Below, piece after piece: positions 8,722 to 62,534 of a stretch of DNA of 64,000 nt. The position numbers and the translations under genes are program-made. Positions within the stretch are counted from its first letter, which is position 1, and each line of letters opens with the position of its first letter. The notes beneath the pieces are model-generated. The model did not search any database and was not told where the DNA came from. It saw only the letters and a list, made by a program, of their open reading frames with translations. The DNA is from Myxococcota bacterium (lineage in GTDB: Bacteria; Myxococcota_A; UBA9160; UBA6930): the NCBI GenBank assembly GCA_965223705.1, contig OZ245015.1, positions 704,001-768,000 on the forward strand, written 5' to 3'.

Positions 8722-9435
8722 ATGCCCGCAAGAACCCGCGCCACTTCGCTCGCGGCCGCGTTGCTCGTCGGCCTGCTCCTCGGCATCGGTGCCCAGGGCG
8801 GCGGCGAGACGGATCGGGAGCACCCCGCACGCAACGGTTCGGGCTGCGCAGAATCGCTGTCGGTACGCGTCCAGGCGTACTACGACCGGATTCGCGGGCT
8901 CCGCGCAGATTTCGAACAAGTGAGCCGCAGCGTGGCGCTCGGCGCCGGAGAGGCCGCGACCCAATCCTCGAGGGGCAACGTCACGCTCGCCAAACCCGGG
9001 AGAATGCGGTGGGAATACACCGGGCCCGAGCCGAGTCTCGTCGTCAGCGACGGAACCACGTTGTGGATCTACGATCCGGAAGCCTCGGAAGTCCAGGTTC
9101 TTCCGATGACGGGAGACAGCCTGAGCGGGGCGGGACTTCAATTCCTCTTCGGCGAGGGCAAGCTCACGGACGCGTTTCAGATTGCGGCCCGGCGTTGCGA
9201 TACGGATCGGCCGGAGCTTGTACTGACGCCCAAGGACGAAGCGCTCTTCGAAAGGATCATCCTCGAGGTCGATCCCGAAACCGGAGTGGCCCGCGGGACC
9301 GAGATTCGAGACCTCTTCGGAAACCGCACGGAGCTCGTGCTTCACGACATCGAGACCGACGGCGACTTCGACGACGGAATGTTTCGGTTCGAGCCGCCCG
9401 AGGGCACCCGAGTCCACCGACTCGAAGGGCCGTAG
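8722..9435 (+). CDS. lolA: Outer-membrane lipoprotein carrier LolA
   Basis: Signal peptide; ADFEQ, KPGRMRWEY and VSDGTTLWIYDP motifs; conserved ftsK-lolA adjacency; GGAG RBS before ATG 8722. Confidence 0.9.
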   Translation: MPARTRATSLAAALLVGLLLGIGAQGGGETDREHPARNGSGCAESLSVRVQAYYDRIRGLRADFEQVSRSVALGAGEAATQSSRGNVTLAKPGRMRWEYTGPEPSLVVSDGTTLWIYDPEASEVQVLPMTGDSLSGAGLQFLFGEGKLTDAFQIAARRCDTDRPELVLTPKDEALFERIILEVDPETGVARGTEIRDLFGNRTELVLHDIETDGDFDDGMFRFEPPEGTRVHRLEGP

Positions 9436-9694
9436 GCCGACGCCTTTGCGCGCCCATTAAAGGGAACACCGCTTCCGGGATTGCGGTGGAACCGCGTACT
9501 CCACCCGAGAAAAGCGTCAAAATCGTGTCACGGCGTCGGCAGACTTGCATCTCGAAACGGCATGCGCGGCGCAATTGACGGTCCAACCCGGCGCTTTTTC
9601 AGGAAAGCGATTCCCCGCGCAGGGGCGCGGTGCGAAATCATCAAAAAGTGTTTTATTTTCGAATAGTTAGCTTGCCCGCGGGGGCCCCGTCCGG

Positions 9695-9722
9695 TTGACA
9701 GCCGGGGGGCGTCTGATATTCT
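9695..9722 (+). promoter_or_regulatory. Putative sigma70 promoter, TTGACA-N16-TATTCT with extended -10 TG
   Basis: Perfect TTGACA at 9695-9700, TG at 9714-9715 and TATTCT at 9717-9722, inside an AT-rich island of a GC-rich genome. Confidence 0.55.
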
Positions 9723-9738
9723 TAGTTTCCTAAAAGTA

Positions 9739-9770
9739 GAGAAAAAACAAGCACTTGCGAGTTTTTTCTC
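9739..9770. repeat. Perfect 10-bp inverted repeat overlapping an IHF-like site
   Basis: GAGAAAAAAC (9739-9748) and GTTTTTTCTC (9761-9770). AAACAAGCACTTG (9745-9757) is one mismatch from WATCAANNNNTTR. Confidence 0.7.
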
Positions 9771-10043: not shown

Positions 10044-10059
10044 CGGCACGGGCTTTGCA
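10044..10059 (+). promoter_or_regulatory. sigma54 (RpoN) -24/-12 promoter upstream of arc
   Basis: CGGCACG-GGCT-TTGCA matches TGGCACG-N4-TTGCW with exact GG-N10-GC spacing, about 60 bp before the arc ATG. Confidence 0.7.
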
Positions 10060-10117
10060 CTAGTGGGCTGCGGGAAACTCGTCCCAGGTGGCGGGTTCGA
10101 AAAGGGGAGAGGGCGCG

Positions 10118-11977
10118 ATGAGCGAGTTCGATTCGGATTCTTCAGACGGACGAGGAGGCCCCTCGGGCCGGAGATTTGGGCGCGGCGATCGCCGTCCCGT
10201 CCCGGTATCTCCCCGCGGCGAGCGGGGGGGCGACGGGGAGCGTGAGCGAGCCATGGCCCGGTCTTTCCAAGAAGAAATTGAAGACCTCCGGGAAGCGATG
10301 CGCTTCTTCGGGGGCGATTCAGTGGAGTTTCGCCGCCGCTTAGACCGCGTGCTGGCCGAGCACGAGGCGCTGCGCCGTCGCTTCCACGTGTCTCGCGAAC
10401 AGCTGACCGACGCCGAGCGGCAGAACGAGAAGCTCGTGCACACGTTGCAGGAAGCGAAGCAGCAGATCGAGCTGCTGAAAGAGGAAGTCGACAAGCTCTG
10501 CGCGCCGCCGAACACTTACGGCGTCTACCAGCGCTCGAACAAGAACGGAACGGTTGAAATCGTCGTGGACGGGCGCCACATGCGCGTCAATGCCCATCCC
10601 GATCTCGATGTCTCGACGCTCGAAGAGGGCCAACTGGTCGTCCTGAACGAAGCGTTCAACGTCGTCGAGTCGTCGGGCTTCACGCAACGCGGTGAGATCG
10701 CGGCGGTTGTCGAGTTGCTCGGCGACGGTCGGGCGATTGTCCTCGGGCACACGGACGACGAACGCGTCGTGACCCTCGCGTCACCTCTGCGAGCCGGCAA
10801 GTTGAAGGCCGGGGACAACATCCTGTTCGACCCGCGCACGCAGTACGCGTTCGAGAAGATGCCGAAGTCCGCGGCCGAAGAAGTCGCGCTGGAAGAGATT
10901 CCGGACGTGACGTATTCGAACATCGGCGGACTCGACGAGCAGGTCGAGATCCTGCGCGACGCGATCGAGCTTCCCTACATGCACCCGGAAGTGTTCCTCG
11001 AGCACAAGCTGTCGCCTCCGAAGGGCATCCTGCTCTACGGCCCTCCGGGCTGCGGCAAGACGCTCATCGCAAAGGCCGTCGCGAACAGTCTCGCGAAGAG
11101 CATCGAGAAGCGTACAGGGCGGGCCACGCCGGCTTACTTCCTCAACGTGAAGGGCCCGGAGCTTCTGAACAAGTACGTCGGCGAGACCGAGCACAAGATT
11201 CGCGAGGTCTTCCGACGCGCCCGCGAGAAAGCGAACGAAGACGTCCCGGTCGTGATCTTCTTCGACGAGATGGATTCGCTCTTCCGCATGCGCGGTTCGG
11301 GCATCTCCTCCGATATGGAGGCGACGGTTGTCGCACAGTTCCTGTCGGAGATCGACGGCGTCGAATCGCTGAAGAACGTGATCGTGATCGGCGCGAGCAA
11401 CAGGCAGGATCTCATCGATCCGGCGGTGCTCCGCCCGGGACGCCTCGACCTGAAGGTCAAGGTCAATCGCCCGGACGAAGCTGCCGCGCGCGACATCTTC
11501 TCGAAGTACCTGACGACGGATCTTCCGTTCCACGCGGATGCGGAGCGCCACTACGGCAGCGATCCGGCGAAGATCGTCGACGGCATGCTCGCCGAGGTCA
11601 TCGAGGGCATGTACTCGACCGGAGAAGAGAACAAGTTCCTCGAGGTGACCTACGCCAAGGGCGAGCGTGAGATCTTCTACTTCAAGGATTTCTCGAGCGG
11701 CGCAATGATCGAAAACATCGTGGCGCGCGCCAAGAAGAAGGCCGTGAAGCGGGCGATCGACCACGACGAGCGTGGTATCAAGGCCGACGATCTCCACGAA
11801 GCGGTGCGGGAAGAGTTCAAAGAGAACGAAGATCTTCCGAACACCACCAACCCCGACGATTGGGCGCGGATCTCCGGACGCAAGGGCGAGCGCATCATCA
11901 ACGTGCGCACGCTCATCACCGGGATCAGCCGCAAAGAGCGCTCGATCGAGAACATCGAGTCGGGGCAATACGTCTAG
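10118..11977 (+). CDS. arc: Proteasome-associated AAA ATPase ARC/Mpa
   Basis: N-terminal coiled coil, LCAPP plus OB-type interdomain, Walker A GPPGCGKT, ELLNKYVGETE, Walker B FFDEMD, ENEDLPNTTNPDDWARISG, C-terminal GQYV (GQYL-type); GGAGAGG RBS before ATG 10118. Confidence 0.97.
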   Translation: MSEFDSDSSDGRGGPSGRRFGRGDRRPVPVSPRGERGGDGERERAMARSFQEEIEDLREAMRFFGGDSVEFRRRLDRVLAEHEALRRRFHVSREQLTDAERQNEKLVHTLQEAKQQIELLKEEVDKLCAPPNTYGVYQRSNKNGTVEIVVDGRHMRVNAHPDLDVSTLEEGQLVVLNEAFNVVESSGFTQRGEIAAVVELLGDGRAIVLGHTDDERVVTLASPLRAGKLKAGDNILFDPRTQYAFEKMPKSAAEEVALEEIPDVTYSNIGGLDEQVEILRDAIELPYMHPEVFLEHKLSPPKGILLYGPPGCGKTLIAKAVANSLAKSIEKRTGRATPAYFLNVKGPELLNKYVGETEHKIREVFRRAREKANEDVPVVIFFDEMDSLFRMRGSGISSDMEATVVAQFLSEIDGVESLKNVIVIGASNRQDLIDPAVLRPGRLDLKVKVNRPDEAAARDIFSKYLTTDLPFHADAERHYGSDPAKIVDGMLAEVIEGMYSTGEENKFLEVTYAKGEREIFYFKDFSSGAMIENIVARAKKKAVKRAIDHDERGIKADDLHEAVREEFKENEDLPNTTNPDDWARISGRKGERIINVRTLITGISRKERSIENIESGQYV

Positions 11978-12031: not shown

Positions 12032-13516
12032 ATGGCGATACCCAAAGTGATGGGTACGGAGATCGAATACGGAATCACCGTTCAAAACGACAGTGACTTC
12101 GATCCCATTTCCAGCTGCGTCCTTTTGGTCAACGCCTACCGCGAAGACCACGAAGGGCAGATCCTCTGGGATTACGATCAGGAAAATCCGCTAGCAGACG
12201 CCCGCGGTTTTCAGGTCGACGGCGAGAAGTACACGCCGAACCAGCAAGAGAACATCGCTCGCAACAAGACGCTGGTGAACGGCGCGCGCTACTACGTCGA
12301 CCACGCGCATCCGGAGTACTCCTGCCCGGAAGTGACGAACGCCCGGGATCTCGTGATCCACGAGAAGGCCGGCGAGCGCATCCTCGAGTTGTCTCGCCGC
12401 GAAGCGAACGCATTGCTCCCCGCCGGTACGCAGATGTTGATCTACAAGAACAACAGCGACCGGAAGGGCAACAGCTACGGGTCACACGAGAACTACTTGA
12501 TGGACCGTCGCACGTCCTTCAAGCAGATCGTCGAGTACCTGATGCCGTTCTTCGTAAGCCGTCAGGTCTACACCGGCGCGGGAAAGGTCGGCAGCGAAAA
12601 CCGCGCGCAGCCTTGCGACTACCAGACGAGCCAGCGATCGGATTTCTTCGAAACCGAAGTTGCGCTCGACACGATGGTGAAACGACCCATCATCAACACG
12701 CGCGACGAGCCGCACGCCGACCGCGAAAAGTATCGCCGCCTGCACGTCATCGTCGGCGACTCGAACATGAGCGAGTACACGATCTTCCTGCGCAACGGAG
12801 CGACGGCCCTGGTGCTCGAGATGATCGAAGACGGAGCGATCGACCGCGATTTCTCCCTGCGGGACCCCGTGCGCGCGATCAAGGAAGTGTCTCATGACAT
12901 CGCCTGCAAGCGCCCGCTGGAGTTGCAGAGCGGGCGCAAGCTCACCGCGGTTGAGATGCAAAAGGAGTATCTCGAGCTCGCCGAGCGCCACTTCGCGAGC
13001 CGGGAAATCTCCGAAGAGCAGCGCGACGTATTGAACAAATGGGCCTACGTGCTCGACACGCTATCGGGCGAGCCACGCGATCTGGCCCGTGAGATCGACT
13101 GGATCATCAAGCTCCAGATGATCGAAGGGTTCATGGACCGGAAGGGTCTCGACTGGGAATCGAGCCAGGTACAGATGCTCGACCTGCAATACCACGATCT
13201 CCGACCGAACAAGGGGCTGTACTACCTTCTCGAGAGGCAGGACAAGGTCGAGCGCATCGTGACGGACGACGAGATCACACGGGCGATCACACGTCCGCCC
13301 GAAGACACTCGGGCGTATTTCCGCGGAGAATGCCTGCGCAAATATGGAAGCGAGGTCTTCGGCGTGAACTGGGATTCGATTTCTTTCGGAATCGGCGACG
13401 ATCCCATCAAGCGCGTGCTGATGGCAGAACCCCTCAAGGGTTCGCGGCAACACGTCGAGGAACTATTGGCGACTTCGCCGACTGCGGCGGAGTTGGTCGT
13501 TAACCTCCGAGCCTAG
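12032..13516 (+). CDS. dop: Pup deamidase/depupylase Dop
   Basis: MGTEIEYG, Dop-loop WDY...PLADARGF, NGARYYVDHAHPEYS, YKNNSD.KG.SYGSHENYLM, PPEDTRAYFRG, NWDS; lies immediately upstream of pup. Confidence 0.95.
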   Translation: MAIPKVMGTEIEYGITVQNDSDFDPISSCVLLVNAYREDHEGQILWDYDQENPLADARGFQVDGEKYTPNQQENIARNKTLVNGARYYVDHAHPEYSCPEVTNARDLVIHEKAGERILELSRREANALLPAGTQMLIYKNNSDRKGNSYGSHENYLMDRRTSFKQIVEYLMPFFVSRQVYTGAGKVGSENRAQPCDYQTSQRSDFFETEVALDTMVKRPIINTRDEPHADREKYRRLHVIVGDSNMSEYTIFLRNGATALVLEMIEDGAIDRDFSLRDPVRAIKEVSHDIACKRPLELQSGRKLTAVEMQKEYLELAERHFASREISEEQRDVLNKWAYVLDTLSGEPRDLAREIDWIIKLQMIEGFMDRKGLDWESSQVQMLDLQYHDLRPNKGLYYLLERQDKVERIVTDDEITRAITRPPEDTRAYFRGECLRKYGSEVFGVNWDSISFGIGDDPIKRVLMAEPLKGSRQHVEELLATSPTAAELVVNLRA

Positions 13517-13543: not shown

Positions 13544-13816
13544 ATGAGTCGAAAATTCCGAGCGGAACACAGCGCCAACGCGAACGACGCAGCGTTTGGA
13601 TTCGTCCGCGCCGCCGAGAGCACCCAGAAGCAGAAACAAGGCGGCGGTGGCGAAGGCGGCGACGGTGAGAAGAGCGGCGATGGGGCCCAGAAGCTCGCCA
13701 AGAAGGGCGAAGAGCTCAAAGAAGAAATGGACGCGCTGGTAGACGAGATCGACGAAGTCCTCGAAGAAAACGCCGAGGAGTTCGTGAAGAACTACGTCCA
13801 GCGCGGCGGCGAATAA
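13544..13816 (+). CDS. pup: Prokaryotic ubiquitin-like protein Pup (GGE-terminated, N-terminally extended)
   Basis: C-terminal DALVDEIDEVLEENAEEFVKNYVQRGGE is the Pup signature; lies between dop and prcB; GGGAGA RBS before GTG 13541/ATG 13544. Confidence 0.95.
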   Translation: MSRKFRAEHSANANDAAFGFVRAAESTQKQKQGGGGEGGDGEKSGDGAQKLAKKGEELKEEMDALVDEIDEVLEENAEEFVKNYVQRGGE

Positions 13817-13900: not shown

Positions 13901-14698
13901 GTGCGCTTCCGGTTTCACGATGGCTATTTCGGATCGAGCTTTTCCGAGCTCGTCGATTCGGAATGTCCCAATCTGCGACCCGATTTCGACAAATGGAAAG
14001 ACAACGCCGGGACGCTGAGTTCCGAGGGCACGACGGTGCTGGCGCTCCGGTACGAATCCGGCGTGCTGATGGCGGGCGATCGATTGGCGACCATGGGAAA
14101 CCTCGTCGCTTCCCGCGAGATCCAGAAAGTCTATGCAACCGATCCGCACTCGCTGATGGCGATCGCAGGCGCGGCAGGGCCCGCGATCGACATGGCGCGA
14201 CTCCTCCGGATTCAACTCGAACACTACGAAAAGATCGAAGGCGCCCCGCTCGAGCTCGAAGGTAAGGCCAACACGCTCGCAGGGCTGATCAAACAGCACC
14301 TGCCAATGGCGATGCAGGGTCTCGTGGTTGTTCCGCTCTTCGCGGGCTTCGACCACCGACGGCAACTGGGCCGCCTGTGGCGCTACGAGCCGACCGGCGG
14401 TCGCTACGAAGAGCGCAACTTTGACAGCGTCGGTTCCGGATCGATGTTCGCGCGCGAGTCGCTGAAGAAGTCGTATCACCAACAGCCGACGCGGGAGGAC
14501 GCGCTGCGGATGGCGGTCGAGGCGCTCACCGATGCCGCTGACGAAGATACGGCGACCGGCGGTGTCGATCCCATCCGCGGCATCTATCCGTTGATGAAAA
14601 TCTGTGATCGCGACGGCATCACGGATATCGCCGACGAGGAAGTCGGCGCGATTTACGAAACGATCGTCTCCGCGCGCCGGGACCGAGGAGTTCGCTAG
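13901..14698 (+). CDS. prcB: 20S proteasome beta subunit with 43-aa propeptide
   Basis: SSF propeptide motif, G|TTVLAL processing site (Thr1 codon at 14030), AGDR (Asp17), QKV (Lys33), GSGS, DxATGG; GGAGGGG RBS. Confidence 0.97.
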   Translation: MRFRFHDGYFGSSFSELVDSECPNLRPDFDKWKDNAGTLSSEGTTVLALRYESGVLMAGDRLATMGNLVASREIQKVYATDPHSLMAIAGAAGPAIDMARLLRIQLEHYEKIEGAPLELEGKANTLAGLIKQHLPMAMQGLVVVPLFAGFDHRRQLGRLWRYEPTGGRYEERNFDSVGSGSMFARESLKKSYHQQPTREDALRMAVEALTDAADEDTATGGVDPIRGIYPLMKICDRDGITDIADEEVGAIYETIVSARRDRGVR

Positions 14699-14700
14699 CC

Positions 14701-15399
14701 ATGTCGCTTCCGTTCTACGTCTCGCCGGAGCAGATGACGCAAGACAAGGCGGAGTTCGCGCGCAAAGGCATCGCGCGCGGGCGCTCCCTCGTTACGCTCG
14801 AATTCGCCGACGGCATTCTGCTCGTCGCGGAGAACCCGCTCAATCTCTCGAAGATCGGCGAAATCTACGATCGCATCGGGTTTGCCGGCGTCGGCAAGTA
14901 CAGCGAGTTCGATCGGCTCCGCCAGATGGGGATCCAGTACGCGGACATTCAGGGGTTCCGTTTCAGTCGGGAAGACGTGCGCGCGAAAGCCCTTGCGAAC
15001 CTGTATTCCCAGACCATCGGCGACGAGTTCAACCGCTCGATCAAACCGCTCGAGGTGGAAATCGTGGTCGCGGAAGTCGGCGACCCCGAAAGCCCCCACC
15101 ACGCCGCGAACTCGCTCTACAACGTCAATTTCGACGGCAGTATTCTCGAACTCGAAGGTCACTGTGTGATCGGTGGCGCGAACGAGAACGTCAAAAGGCA
15201 CGTAGAGACGAACTATCAGGAAAATATGCCCCTAGGGGAAGCTCTTCGTCTGGGCCGGGATGCACTACAGCGTGCAGAGAACGGCACCACGGACCTCCCC
15301 GCGGAGAGCCTCGAGGTTTGCTTGTTGGACCAGAACCGGCCCGGCCGAAAGTTTCGCCGACTTTCTGCCGATGAAGTTCGGGTTACGCTGGATCGGTAG
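14701..15399 (+). CDS. prcA: 20S proteasome alpha subunit
   Basis: MSLPFYVSPEQ...ARKGIARGRS N-terminus, KIGEIYDRIGFAGVGKYSEF, KPLEVEI, R.FRRL end, all typical of bacterial PrcA. Confidence 0.96.
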   Translation: MSLPFYVSPEQMTQDKAEFARKGIARGRSLVTLEFADGILLVAENPLNLSKIGEIYDRIGFAGVGKYSEFDRLRQMGIQYADIQGFRFSREDVRAKALANLYSQTIGDEFNRSIKPLEVEIVVAEVGDPESPHHAANSLYNVNFDGSILELEGHCVIGGANENVKRHVETNYQENMPLGEALRLGRDALQRAENGTTDLPAESLEVCLLDQNRPGRKFRRLSADEVRVTLDR

Positions 15400-15416: not shown

Positions 15417-16823
15417 GTGCAGAAGCGCATTTTCGGAGTCGAAACCGAATACGGCATCATTTTCACGCCGGAGGGTCGTAAGACACTCCCGGTGGAGAAG
15501 GCGATCCGCTTCCTCTTCGAAAAGCTGATCACCACCGAGCACTTCCTCAACGTATTCCTCGAGAACGGCGCCAGGTTCTACCAGGACACCGGGTGCCACC
15601 CCGAATACGCGACGCCCGAGTGCGCGGCGCCGCGCCAGCTCATCGTCTACGACAAGGCCGGAGAGCGGATTCTCGAAGATCTTCAGAACTACGCCGAAGA
15701 GAAGATCCGGGAAGAGCGCATCGCCGGGAAGCTCTCCATCTTCAAGAACAACACGGATTTCGTGGGCAACAGCTACGGTTGCCACGAGAACTACCTGGTC
15801 GATCGCGACGTCGACTTCTACTACCTGGCCGAGCAGCTGATCCCGTTTCTCGTGACCCGGCAGGTGTACTCAGGCGCCGGCAAGGTCTTCCAGACGCAAG
15901 ACGGCGTTCATTACTGCGTCAGCCAGCGCGCGCAGCACATCTACCAGAAGATCTCCGGAACGACGACGAACGATCGTTCGATCATCAACACCCGGGACGA
16001 ACCTCACGCCGATCGCGAGAAGTATCGGCGCCTTCACGTGATCGTCGGCGACTCCAACATGTCGGAGTACACGAACTTCCTGAAGATCGGCGCTTGCGCC
16101 GTTGTCCTCCAGATGATCGAGGACAACTACATCAACAAGGACTTCACCCTGCGCAACCCGGTGAAGGCCATCAAAGACATCTCCCACGACACGACGTGCA
16201 AGCGGAAGCTGCGCCTCGACAACGGTCGCGAGTACTCACCCATCGAGATTCAGCGCGAATACTGTGAGATGGCGCTCAAGTACATCGAGGACTACCCGGT
16301 CAGCGATGAGCTCCGACAGTCCGTGTCGATGTGGGAGCACGTGCTCGATTGTCTCGAGGACGATCCCGACAAGCTCGATCGCAAGGTCGATTGGGTCATC
16401 AAGCGCAAGATGATTCAGTCTGTGATCGACAAGCGCGGCATGCGCTGGTCCGATCCTCGCATCTTCATGCTCGATCTTCAGTACCACGACATTCGCGTGA
16501 ATCGAGGCCTCTACTACCTCCTCGAGCGACGCGGCGCCGTGGACCGCATTCTGAACGACGACGAGATCATCAAAGCGAAGACCGAGCCGCCGCCGGACAC
16601 ACGCGCGAGGATGCGCGGCGAGTTCATCAAGCTCGCTCGCCAGAACGGAATTCAGTACGACCTCGACTGGTCGAATATCCGGCTCGGAAACTTGTTGAAC
16701 GTACGCGTGATTTGCAACAACCCCTTCGAGACCGACACGGAAAAAGTGGCCGAGCTCGTGAAGACGATCCAGAAGACCAACCTGCGCAAGACGAGCCTTT
16801 CGAAGCTCGTCATTCAATCGTAG
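15417..16823 (+). CDS. pafA: Pup-protein ligase PafA
   Basis: RIFGVETEYG, FLENGARFYQD.GCHPEYATPEC, FKNNTD.VGNSYGCHENYL, DLQYHDI, PPPDTRARMRGEFI and DW motifs; lacks the Dop loop. Confidence 0.95.
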   Translation: MQKRIFGVETEYGIIFTPEGRKTLPVEKAIRFLFEKLITTEHFLNVFLENGARFYQDTGCHPEYATPECAAPRQLIVYDKAGERILEDLQNYAEEKIREERIAGKLSIFKNNTDFVGNSYGCHENYLVDRDVDFYYLAEQLIPFLVTRQVYSGAGKVFQTQDGVHYCVSQRAQHIYQKISGTTTNDRSIINTRDEPHADREKYRRLHVIVGDSNMSEYTNFLKIGACAVVLQMIEDNYINKDFTLRNPVKAIKDISHDTTCKRKLRLDNGREYSPIEIQREYCEMALKYIEDYPVSDELRQSVSMWEHVLDCLEDDPDKLDRKVDWVIKRKMIQSVIDKRGMRWSDPRIFMLDLQYHDIRVNRGLYYLLERRGAVDRILNDDEIIKAKTEPPPDTRARMRGEFIKLARQNGIQYDLDWSNIRLGNLLNVRVICNNPFETDTEKVAELVKTIQKTNLRKTSLSKLVIQS

Positions 16824-16835
16824 GGCGCACCGACC

Positions 16836-17213
16836 ATGCCGGTGAGTGACGGTGGCGGGCATCTGCGGGCGGTTCCGGAAGGCGACGGTCCCGCCGAGGC
16901 TCCGTCGGCTCCTCCTCGCGCGTCCGGTTCCGGTGGCCGCGCGCGTATCGTGTTGCTGTCCGCCCTCGCCTTGGGACTCCTCGTCGCAGGCTTCGGTTGG
17001 TTTACCTCGCAGCAGCGCGCCACCGCCCTTCAGGCCAAGCTCGACGCGGTGAGCGGGCAGCTCCGCGACAGCGAGAACGCGCTCCGTGCGACGACTGAGG
17101 AGCTCGCGGCTCGTAGGTCTCACTTCGCGCGGGTGAAGAGCTCGGTCGACGCGTTGGCCGTCGAGCTCGACGGGCTCCGATCGGTCATCCGAGAAGAGCC
17201 GAAACGTCCGTAG
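16836..17213 (+). CDS. Hypothetical bitopic membrane protein with C-terminal coiled coil
   Basis: Starts 12 bp after pafA; one TM helix (IVLLSALALGLLVAGFGWF) followed by ~65 aa of heptad-like helix. Confidence 0.7.
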   Translation: MPVSDGGGHLRAVPEGDGPAEAPSAPPRASGSGGRARIVLLSALALGLLVAGFGWFTSQQRATALQAKLDAVSGQLRDSENALRATTEELAARRSHFARVKSSVDALAVELDGLRSVIREEPKRP

Positions 17214-17416
17214 CTCCCGCGTTCTCGGCCTCTCTAAGCGCAACCCCTGCGCAGTCTCTCATCAGAAACACGCAGTTGTAACGCTCTCGCGAGAGTCTTC
17301 CACGCTCACGCAAGAATTCGTCTAGGCACTGCAAATTGCTACTCAGCACAATGCGAAGCACGGCCGATACATCCTCCGGAGTCTAAGCCCCCATCTCCGT
17401 GCGGAGGATGACTGCG

Positions 17417-18451
17417 ATGTTGTTCGACCCGATCGCAGGAAGAATGTCGAGCGATCTAGCGATCGATCTAGGGACCGCGAATACGTTGGTCTACGTTCGC
17501 GGCAAAGGGCTCATTTGTTCAGAGCCTTCGGTTGTCGCCGTCACCGACGATGAATCGGGCCGCCAGAAGGTGCTCGCCGTCGGTCACGAGGCGAAGGAAA
17601 TGCTCGGGCGAACGCCCGGGGGCATCCAGGCGATCCGCCCGATCAAAGACGGTGTGATCGCGGACTTCGAAATTACCGAGGCGATGCTCCGCTACTTCAT
17701 CCAGCGAGCGCACAATCGTCGCAAGCTGGTCCGCCCCCGAATCGTTATCTGCGTGCCGCCGTGTATCACGAGCGTCGAGAAGCGCGCTGTTCGCGAATCG
17801 GCGTTGTCCGCGGGAGCGCGCGAGGTGTTTCTCATCGAAGAGCCCATGGCCGCGGCGATCGGAGCCGGGCTCGACGTGACGGCTCCGACGGGCAACATGG
17901 TCGTCGATATCGGTGGCGGCACCACGGATGTCGCCGTGATCTCGTTGTCGGGAATCGTGACGTCACGATCGATCCGCTGCGGCGGCGACTCGATGGACGA
18001 AGCGATCATCAACTACGTGAAGCGCAAGTACAACATGCTGATCGGCGAACGGACCGCCGAGAACATCAAGATGACCATCGCGACGGCCTCCGCCACGTCG
18101 AAGACCGAGACGATGGAGATCAAAGGCCGCGATCTGGTGGCCGGCATCCCGAAAGTCGTTGTCACGACGAGCGACGAGATTCGAGAATCTCTCGTCGAGC
18201 CGATCAGCGCCATCGTAGAGACCGTGCATCTGGCGCTCGAACGAACGCCGCCCGAGCTCGCCGCCGACATCGTCGATCGCGGGATCATGTTGGTCGGTGG
18301 TGGCTCGCTCCTGCGCGACCTCGATCAGGTGCTGCGCCAAGAGACGAAGCTACCGATCCTGCGCAGCGAGGATCCTTTCACCGCCGTAGTCCACGGTGCC
18401 GGTGTGGCCCTCGATAACCTCGAGCTGCTCCGAGACGTCGCGATCCGCTAG
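17417..18451 (+). CDS. mreB: Actin-like rod shape-determining protein MreB
   Basis: DLAIDLGTANTL, DGVIADF, IEEPMAAAIGAG, DIGGGTT, TPPELAADI; GGAGG RBS before ATG 17417. Confidence 0.97.
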   Translation: MLFDPIAGRMSSDLAIDLGTANTLVYVRGKGLICSEPSVVAVTDDESGRQKVLAVGHEAKEMLGRTPGGIQAIRPIKDGVIADFEITEAMLRYFIQRAHNRRKLVRPRIVICVPPCITSVEKRAVRESALSAGAREVFLIEEPMAAAIGAGLDVTAPTGNMVVDIGGGTTDVAVISLSGIVTSRSIRCGGDSMDEAIINYVKRKYNMLIGERTAENIKMTIATASATSKTETMEIKGRDLVAGIPKVVVTTSDEIRESLVEPISAIVETVHLALERTPPELAADIVDRGIMLVGGGSLLRDLDQVLRQETKLPILRSEDPFTAVVHGAGVALDNLELLRDVAIR

Positions 18452-58395: not shown

Positions 58396-59030
58396 GCGTT
58401 GTCCCAAGCGCTCGCCAGGGCGCGCACCGCGGCCCCGGGGTCGTCGGCTCCGGCGACGGCGGATATCACGGCGAAGCCCGATGCACCGGCCTCGCGGACC
58501 GCGGCGACCCGGTTGAGGTCCACGCCGCCGATCGCGATCACGGGAATCCCGGCCGCGGCGCCGACCGCTTCCCGCAAGGCCGCAACCCCGCGCTCGTCGT
58601 ACGCCGAATGCTTCGATCGGGTCCCAAACACCGGACCGAAACCGAGGTAGTCGACGCACTCCTTCACCGACCGCGCAACGTGCGAGATCAAGTGGGTCGA
58701 ACGCCCGACGGCGAGTGATTTCCGCGCTTCCGGGGGGATGGCCTCCGGGGACAGGTCATCCTGACCGAGGTGGACCGCGTCGGCCTGGGCGGCCAAAGCG
58801 ATATCGAAGCGGTCGTTGACGACAAATCGTGCGTCGTGTGCTCGCGCGGCCCTTTGAATCGATCTCGCCCAGTCGAGTACTTCGGCGTCGCGCGCATGTT
58901 TCGCGCGCAGCTGAACGACCCGGGCTCCGTTCTCGAGCGCGATCTCCGCTTGCAAGGCGGGGCCCATCGACCAACGCGGATTGTCATCCACGAGGACGTG
59001 AAGGCCTTCGAAGCCCGTCCCGGTTCTCAC
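58392..59030 (-). CDS. thiE: Thiamine phosphate synthase
   Basis: VQLRAK, VNDRFD, VHLGQDD, GRSTH, GPVFGT.SK, AIGG; GTG start overlaps the ntrC stop. Confidence 0.93.
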   Translation of the reverse strand: MRTGTGFEGLHVLVDDNPRWSMGPALQAEIALENGARVVQLRAKHARDAEVLDWARSIQRAARAHDARFVVNDRFDIALAAQADAVHLGQDDLSPEAIPPEARKSLAVGRSTHLISHVARSVKECVDYLGFGPVFGTRSKHSAYDERGVAALREAVGAAAGIPVIAIGGVDLNRVAAVREAGASGFAVISAVAGADDPGAAVRALASAWDNA

Positions 59031-60445
59031 GATGCGTCGGATCGGTCGATGCCGAGCGCCAGGATCTTCTTGCGCAACGTGTTGCGATTGATGCCCAGCA
59101 GCGCCGCCGCCTGGATCTGGTTCCCCTCGGTTCGCGCGAGCGCGCACTCGATCATCGGCTTTTCGACGCGCGAAAGAAGCTCACGATAAATGTCTTCGGG
59201 GTGTTCATCTCTCAACGCCCGCTCGGTTTCTTCAGTCACGAGCGCCTCCAGTGTCGCGGCCTGGGCGGGTTCGCGTTCGTTCGTCAGGAACGCGAAGTCG
59301 TCGGGCGCGAGAACGTCCGTCGAGGCGAGCACGACGGCACGCTTGATGGCGTTTTCCAGCTCGCGCACGTTTCCGGGCCACGGGAGCTCCCGCAGGAACG
59401 CAATCGATTCGTCTGACAGGTGCTTTTCGCGAGACGAAAACTCCGCGCCATAACGCGTGACGAAGTAGTTCGCGAGGTTCTCGATGTCTTCGCGCCGTTG
59501 TCGCAGCGGCGGGAGGCCGATGGGAACTACGCGAAGTCGATACAAGAGATCTTCGCGAAAACTGCCGTCGCGTACTGCGGCGTCGAGGTCGCGGTGAGTT
59601 GCCGCGATAATTCTGACGTCGACATGCGCTGCCATCTTCCCGCCGACCGGCGTGACCTCGCCGCTCTGGAGGACACGCAACAATTTCGCTTGGAGCTCAA
59701 GGGGCATATCGCCGATCTCGTCGAGAAACAGCGTGCCTCCGGACGCCTCGCGAAAGCGCCCCTCTCGCCGGTCCACCGCTCCGGTGAATGCACCGCGTTC
59801 GTGGCCGAACAGTTCGCTCTCGAGCAGCTCACTGGGAATCGCCGCGGCATTGATCGCGACGAACGGTCGATCGTGCCGCTCGCCCGCGGCGTGGATGGCG
59901 CGCGCGACGAGTTCTTTGCCCGTGCCGCTTTCGCCGGTGACGAGCACTGAGACGTCTGAGCGCGCGACGCGCCCGATCGTCTTGAAGACCTCGAGTAGCG
60001 CCGGACTGCGGCCGACGATCCGTTCGCCGCTCTTCTCGCTGACTTCCCGGCGAAGGGAGCGAACTTCGTTGTTCAAGTCCCGAGCGCGAAGGACCTTGCC
60101 GACCAGCAGGGAAACTTCGTCCATGCCGAAGGGCTTGACGAGGTAGTCAAAGGCTCCTCGTTTCATCGCCTCAACGGCGTTCTCGAAGGTATTTTGGGCG
60201 GTGATCACAACGATCGGAAACGTCCCGCCGGCCGAGCGCACCCGCTCCAAGACCTCGAGGCCCGAGAGCCCCGGCATGCGGATATCGAGAAACGCCATGT
60301 CGAAATCCTGCGAGGAAAGTACTTCGAGCGCGGACTCGCCGTCGGACGCTTCGACGACGTCCATCGCCTGGGCCTCGAGAATTTCGCGGAGCACGAAGCG
60401 GATACTGTCTTCATCGTCGGCGATGAGAACACGACCGGAGGCCAT
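59027..60445 (-). CDS. ntrC: NtrC-family sigma54-dependent response regulator
   Basis: Receiver domain, GESGTGKE, GAFTGA, FLDEIGD, WPGNVREL, HTH GNQIQAAALLGINRNTLRKK; dusB-ntrB-ntrC synteny. Confidence 0.85.
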   Translation of the reverse strand: MASGRVLIADDEDSIRFVLREILEAQAMDVVEASDGESALEVLSSQDFDMAFLDIRMPGLSGLEVLERVRSAGGTFPIVVITAQNTFENAVEAMKRGAFDYLVKPFGMDEVSLLVGKVLRARDLNNEVRSLRREVSEKSGERIVGRSPALLEVFKTIGRVARSDVSVLVTGESGTGKELVARAIHAAGERHDRPFVAINAAAIPSELLESELFGHERGAFTGAVDRREGRFREASGGTLFLDEIGDMPLELQAKLLRVLQSGEVTPVGGKMAAHVDVRIIAATHRDLDAAVRDGSFREDLLYRLRVVPIGLPPLRQRREDIENLANYFVTRYGAEFSSREKHLSDESIAFLRELPWPGNVRELENAIKRAVVLASTDVLAPDDFAFLTNEREPAQAATLEALVTEETERALRDEHPEDIYRELLSRVEKPMIECALARTEGNQIQAAALLGINRNTLRKKILALGIDRSDAS

Positions 60446-60447
60446 AA

Positions 60448-61521
60448 CTAGATTCTCCTCAGAGGCAGGATGACGTGTACTTCCGCGCCGCCGCCGGGTC
60501 GGTTCCCGACCTGGAGAAAACCGTCGTGCAGGTTGACCCAGTGTTGCGCTACGGCGAGTCCGAGCCCCGTGCCCCCCTCTCGGTTCGTCACAAACGGCGT
60601 CGTGGCGTCGGGAAGGATGGTGGGCGAAAACCCGGGTCCGCTATCGCAAATGCGCACGCGCAACCTGGGGGTCCGAGGCTCGCCGGGCTTCGCGGATTGG
60701 TGGTCGAGGGTCAGGCGTGTCTCGATCTCGACGCGGCGGCTCGGCCAATCGCTCACCGCTTGGTACGCATTGCGCAGGAGGTTGAAGAACACTTGCGTCA
60801 ATCGGTTCGAATCGCAGAGGAATTCCGGTAGCGAAGGATCGTACGCGCGCTGGGTCGAGACGCCCGTCGCCACGGGGTCGTGTTCGAGTACGTCGATGAC
60901 ACCGTCGAGGATTTCGTGGATGTTCGCCAACCGCACTTCGATTCCGTCCGATGCACTGAAAACCATGAGTTCGTCGACGAGCGCGGCGATGCGGGTCGCT
61001 TCGCGGACCACCAACTGAGCCGTCTCCCGCGTCTTGTCGTCGGTCGCGCGATGCGAGAGGAGCTCGCCGGCGCCGCGAATCCCAGCCAGAGGATTCTTGA
61101 TCTCGTGCGCCAACCCGGCCGCGATGTGCCCGAACGACTCGTTGCGGTCGCGTTCCTCTTCGAGTTGACTCAAGCGCTTCTGGAGCTCGCGGTTGCGCAG
61201 TACGACGAGGGCTCCGTTCACTCGCTCGTCGCGATCGCGCAGCGGCGAGACGTTGACGTCGAGTTGCCAACTGCCGCGCGAACGCGAGTCGATGGCGACG
61301 TCTCCTTCGGACGCCGAGAGCCCCTCGTCGAGGACACGTCGCGCGAGCCGGGCGACGGTGTGCTCGGCGCCGAAGATTTTTTCCACCGGCAATCCCGAGG
61401 CGTTCGTCACTTCGAGGTAGCGATAGGCTGCGGGGTTCACTTCTTCGACCTCGCCCTTCTCGCCGAGAACAACAACGCCCGCCAGGATCGCGTCGAGGAT
61501 GTCGGATAGATCGCGCGTCAC
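60448..61521 (-). CDS. ntrB: NtrB-like cytoplasmic PAS histidine kinase
   Basis: PAS domain, LAHEIKNPLAGIRGA H-box, YDPSLPE, NLLRNA, DSGPG, GTGLGL. Confidence 0.85.
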   Translation of the reverse strand: MTRDLSDILDAILAGVVVLGEKGEVEEVNPAAYRYLEVTNASGLPVEKIFGAEHTVARLARRVLDEGLSASEGDVAIDSRSRGSWQLDVNVSPLRDRDERVNGALVVLRNRELQKRLSQLEEERDRNESFGHIAAGLAHEIKNPLAGIRGAGELLSHRATDDKTRETAQLVVREATRIAALVDELMVFSASDGIEVRLANIHEILDGVIDVLEHDPVATGVSTQRAYDPSLPEFLCDSNRLTQVFFNLLRNAYQAVSDWPSRRVEIETRLTLDHQSAKPGEPRTPRLRVRICDSGPGFSPTILPDATTPFVTNREGGTGLGLAVAQHWVNLHDGFLQVGNRPGGGAEVHVILPLRRI

Positions 61522-62534
61522 GCCGCAGCCCTTTCCCGCGCTTTTTCGTCGATCGTTTCGAGGTATTCCACCGCGCGTTCCGCCAGGGCTGTCGCGGAAT
61601 CGATTCCCGCTGCGCTGCTTCGGAACCGCCGCGCGTTGGGAAGTCCGCGGACGAGCGAAGCCACGGCGCGGCGCAGTGGGTGAAGGCGGCTCGCCGGGTC
61701 GGGAAACTCGAGTTCGAATAACGGCAGGCTCTCTCGGAAAGCACTCCGTCGATCCGCCGGTGAGCGGTCATCCCCGAGGAGTTCCGCGAAGAGCCAAGGG
61801 TACGCGCTCGCGGCTCGGCCGATCATCAGTCCGGAGGCGCCGCTGTCGCGAAGCGCCCGTCGCGCACTCTTCGCATCGACGACGTCGCCGTTGGCGAGGA
61901 CCGGGACCGAGACCGCGTCGACGACGGCTCGGACCGCGGCATAGTCCGCGGTGCCCCGATAGCGCTGCACGCGGGTTCGGCCGTGGACGGTGATGAGGTC
62001 GGCGCCCGCGGCGGCGCAGCGTCGCGCGAGTTCCGGCGCGCTGCGGTCCGACGCGTCCCAACCCGAGCGCATCTTGACCGACAGGGAGCCGGGAAAAACC
62101 GCGCGCATCGCCGCGACGCAGGCGGACAGACGCTCCGGGGTGCGCAGCAGGGCGGCTCCAGCCCCGCCGCGGATGAACTTGTCCACCGGGCAGCCCGCGT
62201 TCAGATCGATCCACGACACCCGGTGCTCCGACAGCCAGGCGCCGGCGTCGGCGAGCTCGGCCGGATCGCCGCCGAACAGCTGCACGGCGGTTCCGGGCTC
62301 GAGGGTGAAGGCCGGTAGGCGCGCCGGGGTTCTGCGCTCGCGGCTGGGATCGGCGAGCCACCGGAGCAGGCCGCGCGCCGAGAGGGTCTCGGTAAACACA
62401 CGCGCCGCGCCGCCCCGACGGGCCAACACACGGAATCCCGCGTTCGATACCCCCGACATGGGCGCCATCACCAGTCGATGGCGAATTCCCAACGCCGCGA
62501 GCTCCCGAGGTGTCTGCCTAAATAATGAGCACAT
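61518..62534 (-). CDS. dusB: tRNA-dihydrouridine synthase (DusB/NifR3)
   Basis: MAPMSG, VQLFG, IDLNAGCP, SVKMRSGWD, HGRT, NGDV, MIGRA. Start uncertain. Confidence 0.88.
   Translation of the reverse strand: MCSLFRQTPRELAALGIRHRLVMAPMSGVSNAGFRVLARRGGAARVFTETLSARGLLRWLADPSRERRTPARLPAFTLEPGTAVQLFGGDPAELADAGAWLSEHRVSWIDLNAGCPVDKFIRGGAGAALLRTPERLSACVAAMRAVFPGSLSVKMRSGWDASDRSAPELARRCAAAGADLITVHGRTRVQRYRGTADYAAVRAVVDAVSVPVLANGDVVDAKSARRALRDSGASGLMIGRAASAYPWLFAELLGDDRSPADRRSAFRESLPLFELEFPDPASRLHPLRRAVASLVRGLPNARRFRSSAAGIDSATALAERAVEYLETIDEKARERAAA

Follow-up and report, generated by a model that had tools for sequence, protein, structure and literature searches.

A conserved sigma54-type promoter sequence downstream of a sigma70-type promoter before the Pup-proteasome operon in a class of Myxococcota

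In this work we analysed a window of 64,000 nucleotides from a Myxococcota genome, which carries a complete set of Pup-proteasome genes. The first gene of this operon, arc, is preceded by a conserved sigma54-type promoter sequence, named P2 here, and the sequence comparisons indicate that it is very probably a genuine promoter that is in use. A sigma70-type promoter, P1, lies 349 nt upstream of P2 and had been overlooked in an earlier note on this DNA. Both promoter motifs, the IHF-like sites, an upstream block, the conservation of all of these and the motifs that arc has in common with fliA are direct observations. We propose, with a probability of roughly 55%, that P2, positioned downstream of P1, is activated from the block by a FleQ/FlrA-like activator encoded beside the fliA/whiG sigma gene, which would co-induce the proteasome and the sigma factor.

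The bacterial proteasome has been studied as a stress-survival system in Actinomycetota, which are effectively devoid of sigma54 (RpoN) (PMC12316311). A sigma54 promoter present throughout a class, together with its candidate activator and a sigma factor under joint control, would give a testable account of when a diderm uses its proteasome. They would describe an acquired machine wired into host circuitry, with a promoter and an enhancer added around an older promoter and lost again in reduced genomes, and they draw attention to a module of an activator and a FliA/WhiG-family sigma factor that is uncharacterised and belongs to an abundant class without cultured members.

The Pup-proteasome operon and its sigma54-type promoter

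The genes arc, dop, pup, prcB, prcA and pafA are contiguous, and all six score above their NCBIfam cut-offs (Table 1). The arc ATG at 10118 begins a conserved N-terminus, and the lolA-arc order is kept across both orders. We found arc in 117 of 121 genomes of the class and in none of the 123 sampled genomes of the phylum outside it. A 125-aa open reading frame (16836-17213), with no Pfam match and a weak anti-sigma match (E 0.0016), starts 12 nt after pafA and may be a seventh gene of the operon; it is followed by mreB at 17408-18451. Elsewhere in the window, dusB-like, PAS histidine kinase and NtrC-like genes lie in a row on the - strand (59027-62534).

Table 1. Coordinates of genes and regulatory elements in the window
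Feature	Positions	Strand	Basis
lolA, conserved upstream neighbour	8722..9435	+	PF03548
Candidate enhancer block	9514..9575	+	conservation; matrix built without this genome
FleQ/FlrA-type box within the block	9515-9530	+	
TGC-N11-GCA site within the block	9546-9562	+	
Second IHF-like site, upstream of the P1 -35 element	9657..9669	+	
P1, sigma70-type: TTGACA-16-TATTCT with extended -10 TG; predicted start near 9729	9695..9722	+	
IHF-like core site with upstream A-tract, 22-24 nt after the P1 -10 element	9745..9757	+	
P2, sigma54 -24/-12 promoter element; predicted start near 10070	10044..10059	+	motif; conservation
arc ribosome binding site, GGAGAGG	10106..10112	+	sequence
arc/mpa, proteasomal ATPase	10118..11977	+	TIGR03689, 735.7 bits (cut-off 504.75)
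dop	12032..13516	+	TIGR03688, 572.4 (cut-off 492.3)
pup, ending in GGE	13544..13816	+	TIGR03687, PF05639
prcB	13901..14698	+	TIGR03690
prcA	14701..15399	+	TIGR03691
pafA	15417..16823	+	TIGR03686, 557.2 (cut-off 551.3)

The gap between lolA and arc measures 682 bp, in agreement with the approximately 680 bp given before. P2 reads CGGCACGGGCTTTGCA, exactly as the earlier note had located it, with GG at 10045-46 and GC at 10057-58 separated by 10 nt, and its predicted start leaves the 48-nt leader that had been claimed. It agrees with the sigma54 consensus printed in section 29 of PMC12754779 at 11 of the 12 informative positions. The bare GG-N10-GC spacing is no evidence for a sigma54 promoter, because it occurs six times in the lolA-arc gap and in 2999 of 3000 shuffles of it; the full pattern, whose degenerate positions were fixed after the first matches had been seen, appears in 6 of 3000 shuffles. 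The sequence itself is reproduced by contigs from four runs of one study, which may be the source sample itself.

Conservation of the motif in relatives, a check proposed in the earlier note, was analysed in 150 de-duplicated arc-upstream regions of the class, after leaving out 6 loci without upstream DNA or already included, 11 without a start found and 45 duplicates. The strict motif is present in 143 of these loci, 54-161 nt before the ATG, and two others carry a variant -12 element (TCGC), which gives 145 under a relaxed definition and leaves five loci without the motif. The conserved motifs comprise 78 distinct 16-mers, to be read with the provisos that the motif seeds were picked after the alignments were seen and that related genomes are not independent. 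In the second order 19 of 21 loci have GGTA, with GG, TTGC and the spacing retained. That P2 is a chance match in GC-rich DNA, as the commonness of the bare spacing could suggest, has a negligible probability and is refuted by this conservation, 143 of 150 orthologous loci set against 4 of 1900 shuffles and none of the 150 loci at other spacings.

A scan of contig C1 of this genome with the pattern resulted in 53 matches, 48 of them intergenic, including 45 that precede a co-oriented gene; intergenic DNA makes up 7.9% of the contig (4276 gene calls of our own). When the spacer was changed by 1 or 2 nucleotides, 16-21 matches were obtained, of which 0-1 were intergenic and upstream of a co-oriented gene. 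The narrower pattern GGCACG-N4-TTGCW gave 21 sites including P2, every one intergenic and upstream of a co-oriented gene. Among the genes marked in this genome are amtB, two pilins, pilY1, a flagellar rod gene and two flagellins, both flagellin genes of this genome having sigma54 sites; amtB, pilin and flagellar genes are typical sigma54 targets. In relatives, a TGCYY-N7-RRGCA motif is found at the amtB promoters. The search for rpoN was positive in this genome (TIGR02395, 433 bits) and in 57 of 61 relatives. Two of the three conditions that the earlier note had named as refuting, an unconserved motif and a missing rpoN, thus do not apply. The genome also encodes 20 strong matches to the PF00158 activator domain and two IHF/HU genes, one of which scores at the himA cut-off.

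Sigma54 sites form dense clusters on C1 of this genome (G000) at approximately 1.82-1.83, 3.34-3.35, 3.65-3.69 and 4.51-4.54 Mb. The clustered sites precede Usp, BON, Hsp20, PRC-barrel and DUF1328 genes, an arrangement that suggests a sigma54 general-stress island with local activators.

P1, IHF-like sites and an upstream conserved block

The search for sigma70-type promoters found P1 as a single hit, compared with a mean of 0.2 in shuffles, and P1 with its IHF-like module is present in 140 of the 150 arc loci. The earlier statement that the operon is driven by a sigma54 promoter thus holds for the existence of a conserved sigma54-type promoter, but the operon is not simply sigma54-driven, because P1 occurs in these 140 loci and remains where P2 has been lost.

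The IHF-like core lies 22-24 nt from the -10 element in 74 of 88 loci and ends in TT in all 88, with a seed that favoured TT; the second IHF-like site was found in 38 of 104 loci, while a control window gave 4 of 104. The IHF-like sites announced in the earlier note therefore exist, but they flank P1, at 300-390 nt from P2. They are near the midpoint between the block and P2 but about 300 nt from P2, with a himA match at the cut-off; at orp promoters IHF sites are located at -40 to -80 (PMC3897727). A structured RNA in the lolA-arc gap was rejected, Rfam giving two weak matches (E 0.3 and 2.2), and so was a conserved hairpin at about 9738-9769 (consensus energy 0, median z 0.07 and 0.39). An inverted repeat at 9738-9769 surrounds the IHF-like site; by eye it is also present in G001, and it is not kept across the class.

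The candidate enhancer block lies about 530 nt upstream of P2 and, across loci, 110-260 nt upstream of P1. Its matrix, built with this genome left out, ranks the block of this window first on C1 (43.5 versus 19.4 bits); it exceeds 20 bits in 64 of 90 loci with P2 and gives -6 to -10 in four first-order losses of P2. An enhancer-like conserved block, as a predicted binding site, and 20 activator genes are thus present, as a sigma54-dependent promoter would need. The matrices of site A and site C alone pick out no regulon genome-wide.

Among the 104 loci in which all parts were found, the median distances from block to IHF site and from IHF site to P2 are 244 and 265 nt, and the two arms are correlated after clustering (Spearman 0.45-0.53). 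The block-to-IHF distances fall at steps of about 10.9 bp at three dereplication levels (R 0.37-0.44, null fraction at most 0.0125), with a null fraction of 0.087 at the strictest clustering. Nearest-neighbour differences close to whole turns number 15 of 26 for IHF to P2; the upstream arm gives 11 of 23 and a control distance 7 of 26, about 46% being expected by chance. A DNA loop from the block to P2 is suggested only, because the IHF-to-P2 phasing loses its significance beyond the loosest clustering (R from 0.35 to 0.19, null fraction from 0.004 to 0.85). The phasing of block to P1 holds, so that action of the block on P1 would fit equally well. No phasing was found for the whole block-to-P2 span, for lolA to block or for P2 to ATG.

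Several genomes of the class are reduced (G001, G002, G004, G007, G016 and G079; 2.1-3.4 Mb) and have kept arc together with 2-4 activators, with a lolA-arc gap of about 170-490 bp where assembled. Five small genomes without P2 also lack, with the queries used, the candidate activator described below and fliA; the fliA query matched 9 of 10 other genomes. An orthologue of the candidate activator is present in five of five small genomes with P2 and in none of six others (five without P2, one with the region unassembled), and the PilR-like and C1:2616537 activators in four of five and none of six. This co-loss is weakly specific, because the P2-less genomes are small and left with 2-4 activators. 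The NtrC-like gene is present in all 11 small genomes checked. Loss of P2 through loss of rpoN was rejected, as four first-order genomes without P2 keep rpoN. P1 remains in G001, G007 and G016, in which P2 was lost, a similar sequence is seen by eye in G079, and none was found in G004.

The view of the earlier note that the proteasome system was rewired fits these data, because the sister Arc lineage, the nearest outside the class (SH-aLRT 99; one cluster member labelled Tectomicrobia), has only a sigma70-type promoter: this stands just before arc in 11 of 11 loci, 10 of which are in the Arc tree, and the sigma54 motif in none. Actinobacteria-like arc loci gave no strict sigma54 motif among 39, with 2 loose matches. 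Since the sister lineage is of the sigma70 type only and P1 remains after loss of P2, the sigma54 module was likely added later, downstream of the ancestral promoter in the ancestor of the class, and lost in some small genomes. In a separate Arc clade (L419, L423, L425, L429 and L430), five of the seven loci with upstream DNA have the sigma54 motif, which in four of them precedes a sigma70-type promoter by about 130 nt, the order opposite to that of the class. Two independent gains of sigma54 control are unproven, because the Arc tree is a quick, midpoint-drawn one of 93 rows with the second order left out and no one-clade test.

A candidate activator and competing explanations

The candidate activator (G000:C1:2658179-2659537) consists of a receiver, an AAA domain with the loop GAFTNA, which differs from GAFTGA, and a Fis-type HTH, and its gene is located directly upstream of a FliA/WhiG-family sigma gene. 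The N-terminus matches Pfam Response_reg, the best PDB match of the HTH is FleQ (E 3.6e-5), and among the 20 activators of this genome it alone has the RTTLxEK helix. From its sequence it is FleQ-like in DNA recognition, although it is not filed as FleQ. It was detected in 103 of 121 class genomes and, at the same cut-off, in none of 123 outside the class. The activator-fliA module, as judged from gene content, is not tied to flagella, because of this wide occurrence and because FlhA was found in 20 of 61 relatives, compared with 46 of 61 for the activator. A flagellar reading is weakened by the same FlhA count and by the flagellin and flgF promoters of this genome, which score below 1 bit for the motif termed box C. 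The surrounding region (G000:C1:2657025-2660625; L164) contains a conserved receiver-less activator gene, the divergent GAFTNA activator gene and the FliA/WhiG-family sigma gene with its sigma54 site.

In 33 of 34 regions the fliA/whiG sigma gene is itself preceded by a sigma54-like site. When matrices were trained solely on fliA regions, with this genome left out, they recognised two motif types upstream of arc. Box C reaches at least 10 bits in 40% of 121 first-order loci, 60% of first-order arc loci thus lying below 10 bits, in 20 of 20 second-order loci and in 1-4% of controls. Site D is found in 42% of 121 loci against 0-3% of controls; in the second order it occurs in 1 of 20 arc loci, and four of five fliA regions there show it only weakly. 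In the window itself these matrices give 9.4 bits (box C) and 4.9 bits (site D). Of the 63 candidate sigma54 promoters in this genome, that of fliA scores highest for box C and that of arc third highest; the composite fliA score places arc at rank five among 801 intergenic regions, with regions that lack a sigma54 motif ahead of it. The box reaches at least 7 bits in 87 of 104 genomes with the activator and in 7 of 18 first called lacking it, 5 of the 18 being later found to have a truncated or sub-cut-off one. The geometry of the arc box, yGTCA-N6-TGACr, is the one given for the FleQ/FlrA-like DVU2894 (PMC4641369); in Pseudomonas, FleQ consensus motifs were reported to be unreliable genome-wide (PMC6120874).

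In genus g36 a GTTC-N6-GAAC box occurs at arc in 15 of 15 loci and at fliA exactly in 8 of 14, or in 13 of 14 with one mismatch; in other lineages it was found at none of 127 arc and none of 44 fliA loci. It represents one event, and the HTH of the FleQ-like activator is unchanged in g36. The g36 box (L230-L262, L376-L390) precedes the arc -35 element by about 68 nt and the fliA sigma54 site by about 244 nt.

According to the mechanism that we propose, P1 would give basal transcription of the arc operon, and a phosphorylation signal would cause the candidate activator to bind the block. IHF beside P1, near mid-span, would bend the DNA so that the activator reaches the sigma54 holoenzyme at P2, and IHF bound shortly after the P1 start would in addition dampen P1. 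The programme would be a motility or lifestyle switch for which flagella are not required. Since the motifs upstream of arc are common to the promoter of the FliA/WhiG-family sigma gene, the proteasome is likely switched on by the FleQ-like activator in a lifestyle change rather than by nitrogen starvation. Of the stress or developmental regulon suggested in the earlier note, co-regulation with a FliA/WhiG-family sigma gene is therefore the favoured form, and an NtrC nitrogen regulon is argued against.

It is rather unlikely, though still to be reckoned with, that another activator (the receiver-less divergent one, the PilR-like one or C1:2616537) acts on P2 from the same block, the likeness to fliA then reflecting a second common factor. 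Two motif types, not one, are common to arc and fliA, the orthologues of the PilR-like and C1:2616537 activators show the same pattern of loss, and four genomes (G057, G072, G103 and G133) keep the sigma54 site at arc without such an activator beside fliA, G072 and G133 keeping site D there. However, box C is the only element shared in the second order, a FleQ-type helix agrees with a FleQ-type box, and the pilin promoter of this genome reaches 4.6 bits for box C. The block and the IHF sites may instead regulate P1, the sigma54 holoenzyme at P2 serving mainly as a roadblock or being activated from elsewhere. This we consider improbable, although FleQ acts at some sigma70 promoters, the candidate activator has GAFTNA, the IHF-like sites are fixed relative to P1 and not to P2, and the block is phased to P1/IHF at three dereplication levels with no robust phasing to P2. 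It would have to account for the joint disappearance of block and P2 in four first-order genomes while P1 stays, and for the same motifs preceding the conserved sigma54 site of fliA. No conserved motif was found between P1 and P2 in the arc loci of the class, and the leader from P2 is short and fairly constant (median of 78 nt from motif start to ATG), as for a promoter that fires.

Membership of P2 in an NtrC nitrogen-starvation regulon, which would match the mycobacterial role of the proteasome under nitrogen starvation, is very improbable. The window contains an NtrC-like gene (59027-60445; TIGR01818, 544.3 against a cut-off of 558.6), sites A and D have the TGC-N11-GCA geometry of the amtB motif, and nitrogen starvation is among the stresses named for Mpa/ARC (PMC6466877). 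The NtrC-like gene is nevertheless kept in all genomes that lost P2, and NtrC was rejected as the activator, as a matrix trained on amtB regions, which matched 25 of 25 in this its training set, matches upstream of arc in 3% of 121 loci and in 0 of 20, which is background.

A bolder version of the FleQ-like mechanism has a modest probability: one FleQ-like activator, as a class-wide master switch, would turn on both the FliA/WhiG-family sigma factor and the proteasome through an IHF-bent loop of about 500 bp whose apex holds and silences the ancestral promoter, and sigma54 control would have arisen twice in diderms with opposite promoter order. If true, remodelling by the proteasome would belong to the programme of a differentiation or lifestyle change not yet described.

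Relation to known systems

In Escherichia coli, glnAp1 and glnAp2 combine a sigma70 promoter upstream with a sigma54 promoter downstream; unlike that system, the NtrC-type motif is not enriched at arc, and the span is longer here. The operon resembles the actinobacterial Pup-proteasome in having all six genes (PMC8223512, PMC6466877, PMC2588565), but differs in that the six form one contiguous run, the C-terminus of Pup is GGE and pafA is not followed by a pafBC-like gene. Pupylation is known to occur sporadically outside Actinobacteria (PMC2588565). Among titles and the beginnings of abstracts, most subscription journals being outside the search, we found no description linking pupylation or the Pup-proteasome with sigma54, RpoN, Myxococcota, FliA/WhiG or FleQ, nor, in such titles and abstract beginnings, a proteasome target of FleQ/FlrA-type activators. 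A class-by-class list of gene families linked to sigma54 is given in the supplements of PMC12316311 and may be relevant to novelty.

A close likeness in a Myxococcota genome is the ahpC promoter of Myxococcus xanthus under PexR, with tandem housekeeping and sigma54 promoters and activator sites of 5-N6-5 dyad geometry (PMC12754779). There the repeats CACCG-n6-CGGTG overlap the housekeeping promoter, whereas the block described here stands clear of and upstream of P1, IHF-like sites are found around P1, and the candidate activator has a receiver domain and not GAF. With Pseudomonas FleQ, Vibrio FlrA and Desulfovibrio DVU2894 the candidate activator shares the box GTCA-N6-TGAC/TGGC, the RTTLxEK helix and the link to a sigma28-family factor (PMC4641369, PMC6120874); unlike them it has a Response_reg N-terminus and a GAFTNA loop and is kept in many genomes in which FlhA was not found. 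The parts and the dual-promoter logic are thus of known kinds, and what is new is that the proteasome is the target, that the layout is long and that a FliA/WhiG module is linked to it.
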